This document shows, one piece after another, positions 41,111 through 60,317 of a DNA stretch of 64,000 bases (its first letter is position 1; every line of letters starts with the position of its first letter). The notes beneath the pieces were generated by a model. It was not told the origin of the DNA, made no database searches, and worked only from the letters and a program-made list of their open reading frames with translations. The stretch is taken from positions 142,196 through 206,195 of the forward strand of contig CAYMXN010000002.1 of the NCBI GenBank assembly GCA_964394435.1, given 5' to 3'. The position numbers and the translations under genes are program-made. This stretch comes from an uncultured Candidatus Saccharibacteria bacterium. GTDB taxonomy: Bacteria > Patescibacteriota > Minisyncoccia > UBA6257 > 1-14-0-10-44-23.

Positions 41111-41182
41111 GCGCGCTTAGCTCAGTGGTAGAGCAGCCGTCTTATACACGGCCGGTCCCTGGTTCGATCCCAGGAGTGCGCA
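41111..41182 (+). tRNA. tRNA-Ile with genomic anticodon TAT (UAU, decodes AUA)
   Basis: GCGCGCT acceptor (one G-U), D-arm GCTC-AGTGGTA-GAGC, anticodon stem GCCGT/ACGGC, loop CTTATAC (34-36 = TAT), T-arm CCTGG-TTCGATC-CCAGG. Confidence 0.75.
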
Positions 41183-41239
41183 CTTTCGGTAAGTTATTTT
41201 GACGATTGGCACATTTCCTGCTTAAATACGTTGGTGTCT

Positions 41240-43263: not shown

Positions 43264-43528
43264 GTATCAATGTACTAGTACATTGTATATGAGCCAATAT
43301 GTTCGTCAAGTACCTATGATGCGTAATGGGTGTCTGTGCCAACAAGTTATATAGATACTTGTCTGTGTGATTTTTAGACGGGATAGATCTCGAGTATAAC
43401 CACTTACTTCTCATGCATTCGTTCACCCCCTGAAGCCGACTTGTTAGATTCGGGATGTATTCTCGGTGTCCTCGTATTCCCCTTTTATTCATAATCCGGC
43501 AAAGCGACTATTTGCCGGATTATCTATT

Positions 43529-43566
43529 GGCTAATCTGTGAAACAAATTTGTTTCACAGATTAGCC
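43529..43566. repeat. 38-bp perfect palindrome GGCTAATCTGTGAAACAAATTTGTTTCACAGATTAGCC containing everted parS half-sites
   Basis: Read directly; both halves exact reverse complements. Confidence 0.9.
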
Positions 43567-43706
43567 TCTGAAATAGAGGGTTTTCGCTGTGAAACAAAAT
43601 GTGAAACACTCTACAGTGTTCAGCTGTGTTTTTCGCGAAGTGTTTATCGTGAAACATTGTTTATCGCTTTTTTACTGTTGTTTCACGGTTTTTTTACCCT
43701 GTAATT

Positions 43707-43722
43707 TGTTTCACGTGAAACA
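43707..43722. promoter_or_regulatory. parS site 1 (TGTTTCACGTGAAACA, perfect consensus ParB/Spo0J centromere site)
   Basis: Exact match to chromosomal parS consensus tGTTtCACGTGAAACa. Confidence 0.85.
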
Positions 43723-43894
43723 ACCCGTCTTGTCGCCGCCGGATCTTACTTTCCATTTCCGGCAGATTTTTATTTCGCATCTCTAGGCACCATGCTTGCT
43801 GTTTATCGTGAAACATCGTCATTGGTTTTTTGTTTATAAACTTTGATGTTTTTCGTTAAATTGGTTCCATATCGCTTGCTTCTACCGAGATCAT

Positions 43895-43910
43895 TGTTTG
43901 ACGTGAAACA
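43895..43910. promoter_or_regulatory. parS-like site with one mismatch (TGTTTGACGTGAAACA)
   Basis: 15/16 match to parS. Confidence 0.6.
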
Positions 43911-43951
43911 CTACCATTGGCTTCTGTTTTACAATTTTTTACCCTGTAATT

Positions 43952-43967
43952 TGTTTCACGTGAAACA
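43952..43967. promoter_or_regulatory. parS site 2 (TGTTTCACGTGAAACA)
   Basis: Exact consensus; embedded in a ~230-bp degenerate direct repeat shared with site 1 (TTTTTACCCTGTAATTTGTTTCACGTGAAACA). Confidence 0.85.
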
Positions 43968-44042
43968 TGCTGGTTGGTAGTTATTGTTTTTCGATTTCTT
44001 TCTTTGCTGTAAAACATTACCGCTGTTTTTCACCCAGTTACT

Positions 44043-44058
44043 TGTTTCACGTGAAACA
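44043..44058. promoter_or_regulatory. parS site 3 (TGTTTCACGTGAAACA)
   Basis: Exact consensus. Confidence 0.85.
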
Positions 44059-44112
44059 AGTAACCTGGTAAAATTGAATTAGATTACGTTAACCATAAGG
44101 AACACATAAATG

Positions 44113-44128
44113 TGTTTCACGTGAAACA
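44113..44128. promoter_or_regulatory. parS site 4 (TGTTTCACGTGAAACA) immediately upstream of yraN
   Basis: Exact consensus. Confidence 0.85.
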
Positions 44129-44135
44129 CTGCGCT

Positions 44136-44522
44136 ATGAAAAATACCACAAGCATCGGATCGTTGGGCGAAGATATCGCTTGCGACTTTTTAAAGAAGAG
44201 GGGACAAAAAATTCTTTTTCGAAATGTTCGTCTTACGGGTGGAGAGCTGGATATTGTTTCACGTGAAACATCGGGCTTGGTATTGTTTGTTGAAGTTAAG
44301 ACTATTCAGGGTTCGGATGATACATTTCGTCCAGAAGATAATTTTTCACTTAGTAAGAAAAAGAATATGGATCGTGCCATACAGTTGTTTAGCGTGAAAC
44401 ATCCAGAATTGTTTAACGAAAAGTTGGGGTGGCGAGCTGATCTTATAACGATTCGAATTAAGAATAGCTTATTGACAGATTATAATAAAGATTGCGAAAT
44501 AAATTATTATGAAAATGTATAG
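44136..44522 (+). CDS. yraN: YraN-family (UPF0102) predicted endonuclease; start set to ATG 44136 (track GTG 44112 lies inside a parS site)
   Basis: SLGEDIACDFLKKRGQKILFRNVRLTGGELDIVSRE...VFVEVKT matches YraN/UPF0102 PD-(D/E)xK motifs. Confidence 0.7.
   Translation: MKNTTSIGSLGEDIACDFLKKRGQKILFRNVRLTGGELDIVSRETSGLVLFVEVKTIQGSDDTFRPEDNFSLSKKKNMDRAIQLFSVKHPELFNEKLGWRADLITIRIKNSLLTDYNKDCEINYYENV
44255..44270. promoter_or_regulatory. parS site 5 (TGTTTCACGTGAAACA) inside the yraN coding sequence (encodes D-I-V-S-R-E-T)
   Basis: Exact consensus in frame within CDS. Confidence 0.85.
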
Positions 44523-58613: not shown

Positions 58614-59303
58614 ATGAGTATTATTCCTGCGATTAATTGTCAGACGTTTGAACAGGTACAAGAGCGCCTCCATTTGGCGCAGGAGATTTTGCTTAGTGAT
58701 TATCAAAAGAAGGGAGGAGAACCTCGCTGGGTACATATTGATATTGCGGATGGGAGTTTTACGGCTGGATATCAGACGTGGCGTACTGCCCAGCAACTTA
58801 CCGAGCTTGTTCGTCACAGTAACGTGCGTATCGAGGTGCATTTAATGGTGACGCGCCCCCAGGAGGTGATTGCGCAGTGGTTGGCCGTTGGTATACAGCG
58901 GGTAATTGTGCACGCGGATATGCCACTTAACTTTCGAGCATTTATTGATGAGTGCCATGCTCATACCGCAGAAATTTTCTTGGCTATCAAGCCAGAGACT
59001 TCGGTTGATGTACTTACTCCTTTTTTACCCTTAATTGACGGATGTCAGCTTCTCGCAGTTGAGCCGGGGCTTTCGGGGCAGCGGTTTGATATTGGTACGC
59101 CCGATAAGATTGTCGCTTTGCGGCAGGTAGCTCCTAAGCTTTTAATTGAGGTAGATGGGGGTATAACGCCAGAAACCGCACAGCTATGTGCTTTTGCGGG
59201 GGCGAGTCAGCTTGTAAGCTCTTCGTATATTTTTGAGAGTAAAAAGCCCCTGGAGGCTTATCAACAGCTAGCAACTATACCTGCGTATCAGTCAAGCTCA
59301 TAA
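58614..59303 (+). CDS. rpe: Ribulose-phosphate 3-epimerase (divergent N-terminus)
   Basis: HIDIADGSF, VHLMVTRP, AIKPET, VEPGLSGQRF, IEVDGGI correspond to RPE metal/substrate motifs. Confidence 0.75.
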   Translation: MSIIPAINCQTFEQVQERLHLAQEILLSDYQKKGGEPRWVHIDIADGSFTAGYQTWRTAQQLTELVRHSNVRIEVHLMVTRPQEVIAQWLAVGIQRVIVHADMPLNFRAFIDECHAHTAEIFLAIKPETSVDVLTPFLPLIDGCQLLAVEPGLSGQRFDIGTPDKIVALRQVAPKLLIEVDGGITPETAQLCAFAGASQLVSSSYIFESKKPLEAYQQLATIPAYQSSS

Positions 59304-59336
59304 TTTGCTAGACTATATACAAGTTTTAGTGTGAGA

Positions 59337-59464
59337 TTCATCCCGTTAGAGGCAGGGTGCTTGGAGCGCCCGTTTCATGAGCGAGTATGTATTATATCGC
59401 ACTACTATTTATGAATTATTACGGGTCATTTATATACTATATGAGTTGCATCTAACGGGATGAA
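59337..59464. repeat. Inverted-repeat-bounded intercistronic element copy 2 (TTCATCCCGTTAGAGGCAGG ... TCTAACGGGATGAA), between rpe and transketolase N-subunit; right arm contains the tkt ATG
   Basis: 14-bp perfect terminal inverted repeats identical to copy 1; interior unrelated to copy 1 and contains a TATACT -10. Confidence 0.7.
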
Positions 59465-60317
59465 ACTGTACACCTCGCGTCTTACATTTTTACAGCAAAA
59501 AGCAAACGATATTCGAGAGGATATTATTCGTATGCTTGTTGAGGCTGGGAGTGGGCACTCGGCAGGTCCCCTTGGTATGGCGGATATTTTTACCGCGATG
59601 TATTTTCATATTTTGAATCATGATCCGAAGCGTCCTGAATGGGCGGATCGCGATCGACTCGTGCTTAGCAATGGACATATTTGTCCGGTGCAGTATGTGG
59701 CGCTTGCTCACGCTGGTTATTTTCCTATAGAAGAACTTCTTACGTTGCGAAAGATTAACTCACGTCTGCAGGGCCATCCGCACCGTGGATCACTTCCAGG
59801 GATTGAGACTACCTCCGGTCCGCTTGGGTCGGGGCTTAGTCAGGCGATTGGCATCGCACTCGCTGGGCGAATGAATAAGCAGCGTTATCAAACGTATTGT
59901 CTGACTTCCGATGGTGAACATAATGAGGGAAATCACTGGGAGGCGGTGATGTTTGCAGGGAAGGAGAAGCTCTCAAACCTTACGATGGTGATTGATCGGA
60001 ATAATATTCAGATTGATGGATTTACAGAAAATGTTATGCCGCTTGAGCCGCTCAAAGATAAGTATGAGGCGTTTAATTGGCATGTACTTGAGGTGGATGG
60101 GCATAATATTGCTCATTTCGTTGATGCGGTGAACGAGGCGAAGGTAATTCATGAGCGTCCGACAGTGATTATTGCGCATACTACTCCGGGCAAAGGAATT
60201 GATTTTATGGAAAATGATTATCTTTGGCACGGTAAGCCTCCGACAAAGGAGCAAGCAAAGGTCGCGCTTCATGAGCTTAGGACTCTCGGACAGAAGATTC
60301 GCAGTGAGCATCAATAA
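59460..60317 (+). CDS. Transketolase, N-terminal (TPP-binding) subunit
   Basis: GSGHSAGPLGMADIF and TPP-binding GDGE motif; ends where E. coli TktA PP domain ends. Confidence 0.9.
   Translation: MKLYTSRLTFLQQKANDIREDIIRMLVEAGSGHSAGPLGMADIFTAMYFHILNHDPKRPEWADRDRLVLSNGHICPVQYVALAHAGYFPIEELLTLRKINSRLQGHPHRGSLPGIETTSGPLGSGLSQAIGIALAGRMNKQRYQTYCLTSDGEHNEGNHWEAVMFAGKEKLSNLTMVIDRNNIQIDGFTENVMPLEPLKDKYEAFNWHVLEVDGHNIAHFVDAVNEAKVIHERPTVIIAHTTPGKGIDFMENDYLWHGKPPTKEQAKVALHELRTLGQKIRSEHQ

Follow-up and report, generated by a model that had tools for sequence, protein, structure and literature searches.

Introduction

Several kinds of short bacterial repeat resemble the element that is the subject of this work. 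On insertion, which occurs in either orientation, Correia elements create a TA duplication. Repetitive extragenic palindromic (REP) sequences are imperfect palindromes of 20-40 nt with a GTAG or CGTC tag, and integron attC sites act as folded single strands with a tyrosine recombinase. The REP2 repeats of Neisseria and similar upstream repeats of Borrelia are described as dispersed sequences of 120-150 bp that lie directly upstream of many unrelated open reading frames (ORFs) (PMC3184786). [quoted passage not shown] Here, we analyze a short inverted-repeat element found twice in a 64-kb stretch of DNA (the window) from an uncultured Candidatus Saccharibacteria bacterium. Copy 1 lies between znuC and znuB, and copy 2 lies directly upstream of tktN, which encodes the N-terminal subunit of transketolase.

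The original prediction for this locus saw in copy 2 a long-range stem that sequesters the tktN AUG, and likened it to a riboswitch, an RNA thermometer or a protein operator. We find that copy 2 is probably a recent insertion of a non-autonomous, hairpin-forming, MITE-like element of ~107-134 bp. The family to which it belongs is spread across the Candidate Phyla Radiation (CPR)/Patescibacteria, and the element is not a gene-specific or metabolite-binding leader.

Results

Close relatives lack the element at the same sites

The inverted repeat at tktN is real. TTCATCCCGTTAGA at 59337-59350 pairs perfectly over 14 bp with its exact reverse complement at 59451-59464, and the tktN ATG lies within the right arm. 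With up to two mismatches allowed, TTCATCCCGTTAGA has four matches in the window against 0.47 expected, a count reached in 0 of 100 shuffles. As originally proposed, the tktN and znuB loci carry copies of one inverted-repeat element. A search allowing up to four total arm mismatches found no more diverged copies in the 64-kb window.

Is this element a fixed part of the genes that it precedes? The tktN site is filled in the window and in three further loci (L121-L123; 99-100% identity), and the copy is identical in these three. The site is empty in L124, L135 and L136, whose tktN proteins are 96-97% identical. There, a 37-nt rpe-tktN spacer ends …TTACATTACGAG/ATGAAACTG (that is, ...ACGAG/ATGAAACTG) and holds a single ATGAA. 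The empty site reads GAG-ATGAA-ACTG and the filled site GAG-ATTCA-TCCCG…CGGG-ATGAA-ACTG. The znuC-znuB site is empty as well (TAA-T-ATG) in L130, L132 and L133, with znuB 91% and 73% identical. Moreover, the genes that carry the element elsewhere are unrelated to one another. Empty orthologous sites and unrelated carrier genes together indicate an insertion, start-codon-specific rather than random, and not a leader of tktN or znuB.

A cis-regulatory RNA specific to tktN and znuB, be it riboswitch, thermometer or protein operator, would account for a stable helix that contains the AUG and for two operons of the window sharing it. We regard this as highly improbable, because the element is missing at the same site beside nearly identical genes, is carried by unrelated genes in at least 120 genome stretches, has a variable interior and is inverted in copy 2 relative to copy 1. 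It also matches no Rfam family. No family for the element was found in Rfam 15 by gathering-threshold scans of the window and of 15 loci that hold canonical copies, nor by E-value scans of the two copies; these scans returned only tRNAs and one chance CRISPR-DR match (E = 6.9). Similarly, no conserved unpaired core that could form a ligand pocket was found among 133 copies of the family, in which the invariant positions are nearly all paired arm positions. The regulatory interpretation thus fails for these two genes: the copies are insertions, though start-codon-specific ones.

In one further locus (L126:681-1155; tktN 80% identical), the rpe-tktN spacer holds a different insertion, a gene for a 130-aa PDDEXK_3 protein (PF13366) flanked by 14-bp terminal inverted repeats (CTAATTACTAATCC / GGATTAGTAATTAG).

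The element belongs to a family spread across Patescibacteria

We scanned a collection of genomes, one per species, for ATCCCGTTAGA-N(85-115)-TCTAACGGGAT, a pattern whose 22 fixed bases should give about two chance hits. The same 11-nt arms, enclosing elements with a whole length of 107-134 nt, occur in at least 120 genome stretches. Among the first 80 loci, the carriers are almost all Patescibacteria, including Saccharibacteria, many Paceibacterota/Parcubacteria groups, Levyibacteriota and Kerfeldbacteria. A few carrier contigs are labelled Omnitrophota, WOR-3, Sedimentisphaerales or Gammaproteobacteria. Loci L059, L075, L077, L016 and L057, where the same arms are present, belong to long contigs assigned to Sedimentisphaerales (two, of 210 kb and 81 kb), Omnitrophota and WOR-3, reflecting either horizontal spread beyond Patescibacteria or mis-binning.

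The window itself is Patescibacteria-like: it encodes tRNA-Ile(UAU), and its closest tktN homologues come from Patescibacteria and Harrisonbacteria. This tRNA gene lies at 41111-41183; few bacteria have such an anticodon, which implies that AUA is decoded without lysidine. A scan of viral contigs gave no match to the element, and we rejected a phage origin. Full-text literature searches for the arm sequence, for palindromic or MITE elements of CPR bacteria, for start-codon duplication and for leaderless CPR genes found no description of the element.

The element sits at start codons and rebuilds them

Family statistics were drawn from 133 exact-arm copies in 120 loci and the window (939 kb). 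Read in the sense of the downstream gene, the layout is (A)TGRA, TCCCGTTAGA-RRY, a variable AT-rich interior, -T-RYY-TCTAACGGGA, and then TGRA leading into the ORF. In an alternative register, it is ATGR, ATCCCGTTAGA-RRY, the interior, -T-RYY-TCTAACGGG, and ATGRA leading into the ORF. The terminal inverted repeats consist of 11 invariant and 3 covarying nucleotides. The 3' end of the interior takes one of two forms, either a local hairpin (ACGG-stem-loop-stem-CC) just before -T-RYY- or a GC helix formed at long range (CGCGRTC/GAYCGCG), whose 3' strand bears a 4-nt AYCU bulge. The invariant bases are the 22 paired arm positions and a C-T step that precedes the 3' arm by 3 nt; the interiors are variable and essentially unrelated among copies, falling into 94 clusters.

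In 121 of the 133 copies (91%), a long ORF has its first codon precisely at the arm-end ATG, and 10 of 13 diverged copies also lie at an ORF start. Under a rough null that treats insertions within genes as lethal and every non-coding site as equivalent, 24% of copies would lie at start codons given TGRA specificity and at most 52% given ATGRA specificity. An ATG is present on both sides of 110 copies, in 100 of which the direct repeat that begins with it spans at least 5 nt. ATGAA and ATGGA together account for 88% (97/110) of element-bearing starts, compared with 34% of ordinary starts in the same loci. In the TCCCG…CGGGA register (TCCCGTTAGA…TCTAACGGGA, a perfect 10-nt terminal repeat), the target duplication is 4 nt in 100 of 137 copies (TGAA 72, TGGA 22), 3 nt in 7 and 5 nt in 6, the register itself being ambiguous (2, 4 or 5 nt) since the element ends mimic the target. 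Under another reading, the same structure is a pair of perfect 11-nt half-sites that enclose a GR dinucleotide.

The element inserts between the A and the TGRA of a start region and duplicates 4 bp, and its own terminal A together with the duplicated TG restores an ATG. The downstream ORF thus remains intact, with its start codon inside the 3' arm. Three copies with GTG on the left and ATG on the right are consistent with a new ATG made of the terminal A of the element and the duplicated TG.

In five loci (L012, L015, L058, L080 and L093), head-to-tail tandem arrays share exactly one ATGRA between units. Decayed copies and mini-derivatives occur, and solo arms are decayed copies. L152:45-125 holds two tandem mini-derivatives, each ~38 nt long and made up of the two arms with an 18-nt loop between them (GTCCCGTTAGAGGTTTGTCCACAAACTCTCTAATGGGA); the pair is found just upstream of an IS200-like gene. 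The insertions have a strong polarity: the interior is oriented with the gene in 79 copies and against it in 7 (~92% co-oriented), the split being 32:0 in the long-range class and 33:6 in the hairpin class.

The arms are kept complementary

The claim that a helix occluding the initiation codon is a conserved and non-random design holds at the level of the family, both in the position of ORF starts within the arm and in the arms themselves. Arm positions 12-14 vary yet remain complementary (AU 50/GC 40; AU 48/GC 38; CG 47/UA 43), with 123 double-change cells versus 49±13 after shuffling and 0 of 500 shuffles as high; slid controls fall to ~40% paired. Covariation between the arms, whose absence would have counted against the original prediction, is present, but not in the sense then intended: it is seen among paralogous copies, where maintenance of a palindrome at the DNA level could produce the pattern equally well. 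Exceptions to pairing are balanced (G·U 7, A·C 5) and show no strand bias, and the gene-sense strand is slightly more stable than the antisense strand (-1.0 kcal/mol, p = 0.027). Neither the 7 to 5 ratio nor this small energy difference discriminates between an RNA and a DNA origin of the complementarity, which is silent on whether its keeper is RNA, single-stranded DNA or a palindrome-correcting process.

The original prediction also offered a dimeric transcription factor that would bind the two DNA half-sites and loop the promoter. Invariant 11-bp sequences could indeed be protein-binding sites. But the length of the element varies by 27 nt (107-134 nt) without helical phasing, arm positions 12-14 covary as a helix, and the arms behave as transposon termini, with polymorphic insertions, target duplications and tandem arrays. 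About 40% of the targets, moreover, sit at operon-internal junctions that have no promoter. We give this explanation almost no credence.

Could the element be mobile in origin and now serve as a domesticated module, its AUG-occluding helix exerting genome-wide translational control as an RNA thermometer, an operator for RNase III or another protein, or a coupling valve? A helix with the AUG in its arm is kept family-wide, orientation is strongly biased in both structural classes, and the arms are invariant over very distant lineages. Some motifs are sense-specific (YGGGA in 25 of 94 copies versus 5 for its complement; GTCGA in 16 versus 1), and the small stability advantage of the sense strand points the same way, as does the retention of RNase III by CPR bacteria (PMC12641178). 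However, unrelated genes carry the element, close relatives differ in which sites are filled, and copies decay. Outside the arms only the C-T step is invariant, the arms lack a G·U versus A·C strand bias, and the reading-frame statistics given below fit the avoidance of harm equally well. We consider domestication unlikely, though it deserves more weight than control specific to tktN and znuB.

Copy 2 is probably a derived copy

The two window copies were originally described as having shared termini, unrelated interiors and the same geometry at their genes. The arms are indeed common to both (those of copy 1 are 14 bp, ATCCCGTTAGAGGC / GCCTCTAACGGGAT), but the outer right terminus of copy 1 is TCTAACGGGATTAT and not ...GATGAA (two mismatches). 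The interiors are not unrelated throughout, as in both copies a GC hairpin and then GTT follow straight after the same arm (36369-36389 and 59355-59371). This shared feature gives the element an internal polarity, by which copy 2 is inverted relative to its gene and copy 1 is not. The ATG thus lies in an arm at both genes, but in the hairpin-proximal arm at znuB, which is canonical, and in the hairpin-distal arm at tktN. The TATACT hexamer proposed as a -10 box is present at 59433-59438; however, a promoter scan found no two-hexamer promoter in or near copy 2, and none in copy 1 either.

The orientation of copy 2 is found in only 7 copies of the family, and an outward extension of the palindrome by at least 3 nt in only 3 of 133 (3 nt in copy 2, 6 nt in L091, and L040, which is a natural palindrome, ATGCAT). 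The family-typical left flank is ATGA. In copy 2, the outer TTC of the left flank is now complementary to the GAA of the right flank, and the left TGAA duplicate has turned into TTCA, the reverse complement of the right duplicate. Because the left flank has been palindromized in this way, the stem reaches 14 bp, and a perfect 14-bp stem around the AUG is thus peculiar to copy 2 and not a design of the family. The inverted repeat grows to 21 nt at 90% complementarity (59334-59354 with 59447-59467). The hairpin at 59355-59371 is the counterpart of the ACGG-stem-loop-stem-CCT hairpin that usually stands beside the gene-proximal arm; it has a U·G pair on the + strand where the minus strand has a C·A mismatch. 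The long-range helix is part of the minimum free energy (MFE) structure of the + strand RNA of copy 2 (-52.5 kcal/mol, z = -5.6), and a long helix is likewise in that of the minus-strand RNA of copy 1 (-43 kcal/mol, z = -9.0). In copy 1, the upstream start-codon copy has been lost and reads ATAA, the TAA of which is the znuC stop.

We infer that copy 2 is a derived, atypical copy that arose by a template-switch or inverted-repeat event, of the kind that quasipalindromes are known to undergo. Both outcomes, an inverted interior and a copied complement of the right flank, would follow from one intramolecular template switch across the repeat. That switch would overwrite the upstream ATGAA with ATTCA, remove the upstream ATG and lengthen the helix from 11 to 14 bp. 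At L091:2761-2903, the same phenomenon is seen with a palindrome 6 nt longer, the upstream flank being overwritten by the reverse complement of the first codons of the gene (GAGCGCTC/ATCCCG…CGGGAT/GAGCGC). Window positions 59320-59337 (CAAGTTTTAGTGTGAG) are unrelated to the empty-site sequence at L124:1478-1500 (AGGAATCTATTACATTACGAG), the other flanking DNA being ~92% identical.

The helix of copy 2 probably lowers initiation at tktN unless it is opened. A 28-codon ORF within the copy, which ends in the AUGA at the tktN start, could act as a candidate upstream ORF that couples its own translation to that of tktN.

Ribosomes may read through the element

The upstream ATG opens a leader that begins MNPVR… or MDPVR…. 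Only this arm-encoded stretch is common to the leaders, and a comparison of the leader ORFs found no conserved peptide beyond it; we therefore rejected a conserved encoded peptide. The frame of the upstream ATG is stop-free through the interior in 35 of 98 standard-junction copies; in the remaining sense frames this holds for 9 and 6 copies, in the antisense frames for 8-17. With one representative per cluster, the open frames number 33 versus 8 and 6 (p = 2.6e-7). Where the distance between the two ATGs leaves a remainder of 1 on division by 3, open leaders (24 of 45) end at the UAA in the 3' arm, 4 nt before the AUG; where it leaves 2, they (10 of 33) end within AUGA, with UGA as the stop. 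A distance divisible by 3 puts the two ATGs in frame; of 20 copies of this kind, only 1 has an open leader (Fisher p = 2.6e-4), and this length class is itself depleted.

On statistical grounds, this is the selection that would be expected if ribosomes enter via the upstream ATG, if extending the protein at its N terminus does harm and if stopping beside the AUG aids reinitiation. After insertion, the original initiation signals would stand before the upstream copy of the ATG, and ribosomes would start there. They would then read through the element, unwind the helix, stop at the UAA 4 nt before the AUG or at the UGA of AUGA, and reinitiate. The frame pattern suggests that such termination-reinitiation keeps the downstream gene expressed.

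The same statistics bear on an origin at the RNA level. In that scenario, the element would be excised like an intron, by RNase III or by an endonuclease and a ligase, or would spread by reverse transcription of the 5' part of transcripts that bear it, which are often leaderless, AUGRA microhomology making the repeat. The element is sense-oriented relative to genes, the AUG anchors its direct repeat, whose left junction varies and whose right junction is precise, and a -10-like hexamer 6 nt before the ATG, together with few Shine-Dalgarno (SD)-like motifs, suggests leaderless transcripts. But the frame statistics show translation entering the element, which argues against its removal from mRNA. 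About 40% of the targets are operon-internal, so a 5'-end model is not general; DNA recombination accounts better for the perfect terminal inverted repeats and the head-to-tail arrays; and no association with a reverse transcriptase was seen in the loci. We consider an RNA-level origin improbable.

At element copies, the -10-like hexamer is most frequent 6-7 nt before the upstream ATG. Ordinary genes in the same loci have the same -10-like peak, and SD-like motifs precede only 90 of 633 ORFs (14%). At the ordinary genes of L001-L120 and the window, a sharp TATAAT-like peak lies exactly 6 nt upstream of the ATG. Likewise, L126:1120-1160 reads GATATAAT-CAATAT-ATG before tktN, and L124:1470-1503 was noted for this pattern as well. 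The rarity of SD motifs and the -10 peak suggest that leaderless transcription and translation are widespread in these Patescibacteria. We rejected the idea that the element generally targets the transcription starts of leaderless genes, given that the peak is found at ordinary genes too and that 41 of 103 targets (~40%) lie at junctions inside operons, 12 of them ATGA overlaps, where a promoter would not fit.

Candidates for a mobilizing enzyme

No copy encloses a gene, and no pair of arms lies 0.3-2.5 kb apart in the 939 kb sampled (~0.8% of each genome). The only recurring mobile-element protein is Y1_Tnp (PF01797), with genes in the 8-kb stretch around the element in 7 of 120 loci. The nearest NCBIfam model of these Y1 genes, below its cutoff, is the REP-associated tyrosine transposase (RAYT). 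The element might then be a REPIN-like doublet mobilized by a Y1/HUH transposase of this kind, an idea to which its size, its long-hairpin architecture and an orientation-specific insertion beside a pentanucleotide reminiscent of IS200/IS605 lend some support. However, 80 metagenome loci chosen by their Y1 gene (444 kb) contain only 5 elements, no denser than the window, and the Y1 genes are flanked by IS200-like hairpins of their own that are unrelated to the arms of the element. Such a hairpin is ACTTGGGTGC-TCC-GCACCCAAGT, and Y1 genes of this type were seen on CPR contigs at L017:230-1040, L152:160-900 and L206:3690-4460. The arms, moreover, are not palindromic REP units and have no GTAG or CGTC tag, and a matched, sequence-variable duplication (TGAA, TGGA, TGCAA and others) is not the product of a Y1 enzyme. 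We rejected a REPIN-RAYT link on the lack of enrichment around Y1 genes and on their separate hairpins, and consider REPIN-like mobilization very unlikely.

The ends of the element point elsewhere. Where they are joined in tandem arrays, they form TCTAACGGGAT-GR-ATCCCGTTAGA, in which a short asymmetric core separates two perfect half-sites in inverted orientation. The crossover sites of serine and tyrosine recombinases are laid out in this way. An excised, probably circular form could recombine through this palindromic junction with ATGRA, by means of a putative site-specific recombinase or transposase encoded in trans. The asymmetric GR core would explain the fixed polarity, the presence of the core at both junctions and the preference for resident junctions, from which tandem arrays would result. 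Alternatively, a DDE transposase with a 4-bp stagger accounts for the duplication but not for the polarity, which would then come from selection.

Features of the window

The features of the two loci are listed in Table 1. The tktN gene is preceded by rpiB and rpe, and the gene for the C-terminal transketolase subunit comes next.

Table 1. Coordinates of the two element copies and of the adjoining genes in the window.
Feature	Position	Strand	Remarks
Copy 2, core, ATCCCGTTAGA to TCTAACGGGAT	59340-59461		122 bp; interior inverted relative to tktN
Copy 2, left arm TTCATCCCGTTAGA	59337-59350	+	Invariant family arm is 59340-59350
Copy 2, right arm TCTAACGGGATGAA	59451-59464	+	Holds tktN ATG (59460-59462), UAA (59453-59455) and UGA (59461-59463)
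Copy 2, arm-proximal hairpin GGGTGC-TTGGA-GCGCCC	59355-59371	+	
Copy 2, internal ORF	59377-59463	+	28 codons; ATG at 59377; UGA stop overlaps tktN AUG (AUGA)
tktN, transketolase N-terminal subunit	59460-60317	+	285 aa; Transketolase_N; PF00456 and PF13292
rpe, ribulose-phosphate 3-epimerase	58614-59303	+	PF00834; stop 33 nt before left arm of copy 2
Copy 1, core	36354-36476	-	123 bp; canonical orientation for znuB; whole copy 36351-36479
Copy 1, arm-proximal hairpin GGATGTGC-TTTTG-GCACATCC	36369-36389		
znuB-like ABC-3 permease	35594-36355	-	253 aa; PF00950; ATG (36355-36353) within element arm
znuC-like ABC ATPase ORF	36476-37180	-	PF00005 in orthologous locus; stop (36478-36476) in other arm

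Elsewhere in the window, a 630-nt intergenic region within 43500-44270 is dense in GTGAAACA/TGTTTCAC 8-9-mers. A perfect 16-bp palindrome, TGTTTCACGTGAAACA, has four exact copies there (43952, 44043, 44113 and 44255) and one copy with a single mismatch (43895), and a 19-bp perfect palindrome lies at 43529-43566. Two of the TGTTTCACGTGAAACA copies fall inside a 136-aa ORF (44112-44522) that looks, by eye, like a YraN-type endonuclease. This repeat region could be an operator or iteron array, or origin-like; the GC skew has no sign change at 43500-44270. At 32001-34000, local GC is 0.54, compared with ~0.46 elsewhere.

Discussion

Copy 2 at tktN is most plausibly read as a young insertion of a mobile, start-codon-associated element, for the reasons that the same site is empty in close relatives and that the family sits before unrelated genes. 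Several observations weigh against this reading. The sample was chosen by exact arms and is biased toward intact or young copies. No autonomous partner or mobilizing enzyme was found in the sampled loci, and mobility is deduced from comparative evidence. Arms of 11 nt that are invariant across a whole superphylum are unusual for a MITE, and their covariation could stem from mutational correction of the palindrome rather than from selection on an RNA helix. The start-codon and orientation biases could likewise reflect selection or survivorship rather than the mechanism of insertion. At copy 2 itself, ~18 nt upstream differ from the empty site, which simple insertion does not explain. Finally, the leader frame meets an early stop in 63 of 98 copies (~64%), and the upstream ATG is missing in 16% of copies, including both in the window. 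These last two findings mean that coupling is not the sole route by which the downstream gene is translated. Other routes must exist, such as breathing of the helix, 70S scanning, or unwinding by a ribosome that terminates at the base of the helix; copy 1 is an example of the last arrangement, with the znuC stop abutting the 5' arm.

How far does the family depart from what is known? We tentatively suggest, as a possibility that we rate well below the insertion itself, that it represents a class of start-codon-homing elements not described before. Such an element, a hairpin of ~120 nt, would be excised and integrated in one polarity by a conserved recombinase of CPR bacteria that acts in trans via TCTAACGGGAT-GR-ATCCCGTTAGA, would rebuild the ATG, would bring its own rescue of expression in the form of a leader from the upstream ATG that crosses the helix and stops at UAA-N4-AUG or AUGA, would keep its arms invariant across the superphylum and would possibly be co-opted as a translational valve.

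The CPR/Patescibacteria are among the least understood and most reduced bacteria. If our reading is true, they harbor a widespread mobile element with a property that has not been reported for bacterial MITEs. The element would also offer a tangible way into translation initiation for organisms with few SD-like motifs (14% of the sampled ORFs), and it would point to a recombinase or transposase conserved across the superphylum, whose polarity-specific integration at short sites could be of practical use. In annotation, gene callers and screens for non-coding RNA would be misled by start codons that lie within a repeat and by spurious leader ORFs of the MNPVR… type. The helices at tktN and znuB are not worth pursuing as riboswitches, but they are a good entry point to the element family.

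In most respects, the element conforms to the definition of a MITE. It is short (107-134 bp, where MITEs span 50-800 bp), non-coding and multi-copy, has terminal inverted repeats of at least 10 bp and a target duplication within 2-10 bp, and is present or absent at orthologous sites. Unlike a typical MITE, it does not insert in either orientation (79:7 overall, 32:0 in the long-range class), a departure that arises either through mechanism or through selection. It also differs from MITEs in its start-codon specificity, its regeneration of the ATG, its near-fixed polarity and its superphylum-wide invariant arms.

Correia/NEMIS elements of Neisseria and ERIC/IRU sequences of enterobacteria are alike in being non-coding, multi-copy sequences of ~100-150 bp with terminal inverted repeats and a short duplication. 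They too lie next to or in transcription units, form a long hairpin in mRNA, and are present in some strains and absent from others. In contrast to the Correia type, this family duplicates (A)TGRA and rebuilds the ATG, is ~92% co-oriented, keeps its arms invariant across a superphylum and not a genus, and has no identified parent insertion sequence.

The resemblance to REPIN-RAYT systems lies in an inverted pair that forms a hairpin of ~110 nt, and REPINs can be abundant, vertically persistent and mobilized in trans. The arms here (ATCCCGTTAGARRY) are not self-complementary and carry no GTAG/CGTC tag, and the element has a target duplication and does not cluster with Y1 genes. Integron attC sites share more of the architecture, being imperfect palindromes of 57-141 nt with conserved ends (GTTRRR/YYYAAC, here GTTAGA/TCTAAC), a variable center, one strand with an extrahelical bulge, and an orientation that is fixed relative to genes. 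The order of the core, however, is inverted in the element (GTTAGA 5', TCTAAC 3') relative to attC (5'-RYYYAAC … GTTRRRY-3'). In addition, attC sites lie 3' of cassette ORFs, in arrays beside intI, whereas the element stands singly at start codons throughout the chromosome. We rejected an attC identity because the hexamers match but their order and location do not.

The palindrome-associated transposable elements (PATE) derived from IS200/IS605 share with the element one subterminal hairpin and orientation-specific insertion beside ATGRA, and nothing else. PATE have subterminal hairpins at both ends, no terminal inverted repeats and no target duplication, and they insert 3' of a fixed tetra- or pentanucleotide; we rejected this origin in view of the long terminal inverted repeats and the matched, sequence-variable duplication of the element. 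The crossover sites of serine and tyrosine recombinases (IS607-type sites, the att sites of large serine integrases, dif/lox) resemble TCTAACGGGAT-GR-ATCCCGTTAGA in their inverted half-sites and asymmetric core. They differ in that the target here shares only ATGRA with the site and that duplications of 3 and 5 nt do not fit a strict 2-bp core.

For its possible effect on translation, the closest parallels are the MS2 coat-replicase junction and the ATGA and UAAnnAUG junctions, where upstream translation opens a helix that holds an AUG and adjacent termination permits reinitiation. Unlike these, the device suggested by our frame statistics would ride a mobile element to many genes.

REP2 supplies the ATG of its downstream gene and contains internal stem-loops, as the element does. 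It has no terminal inverted repeats, brings its own promoter and ribosome-binding site, is confined to one genus with ~25 copies, and is not reported to have a target duplication or a long-range helix (PMC3184786). The Rickettsia palindromic elements are also palindromic, mobile, found in reduced genomes and compatible with expression of the host gene. They insert in frame within ORFs and become part of the translated protein (PMC10969869), whereas the element stays outside the ORF and is read through in frame in 1 of 20 copies. The element works most like the co-transcribed hairpin MITEs, Correia/NEMIS and ERIC.

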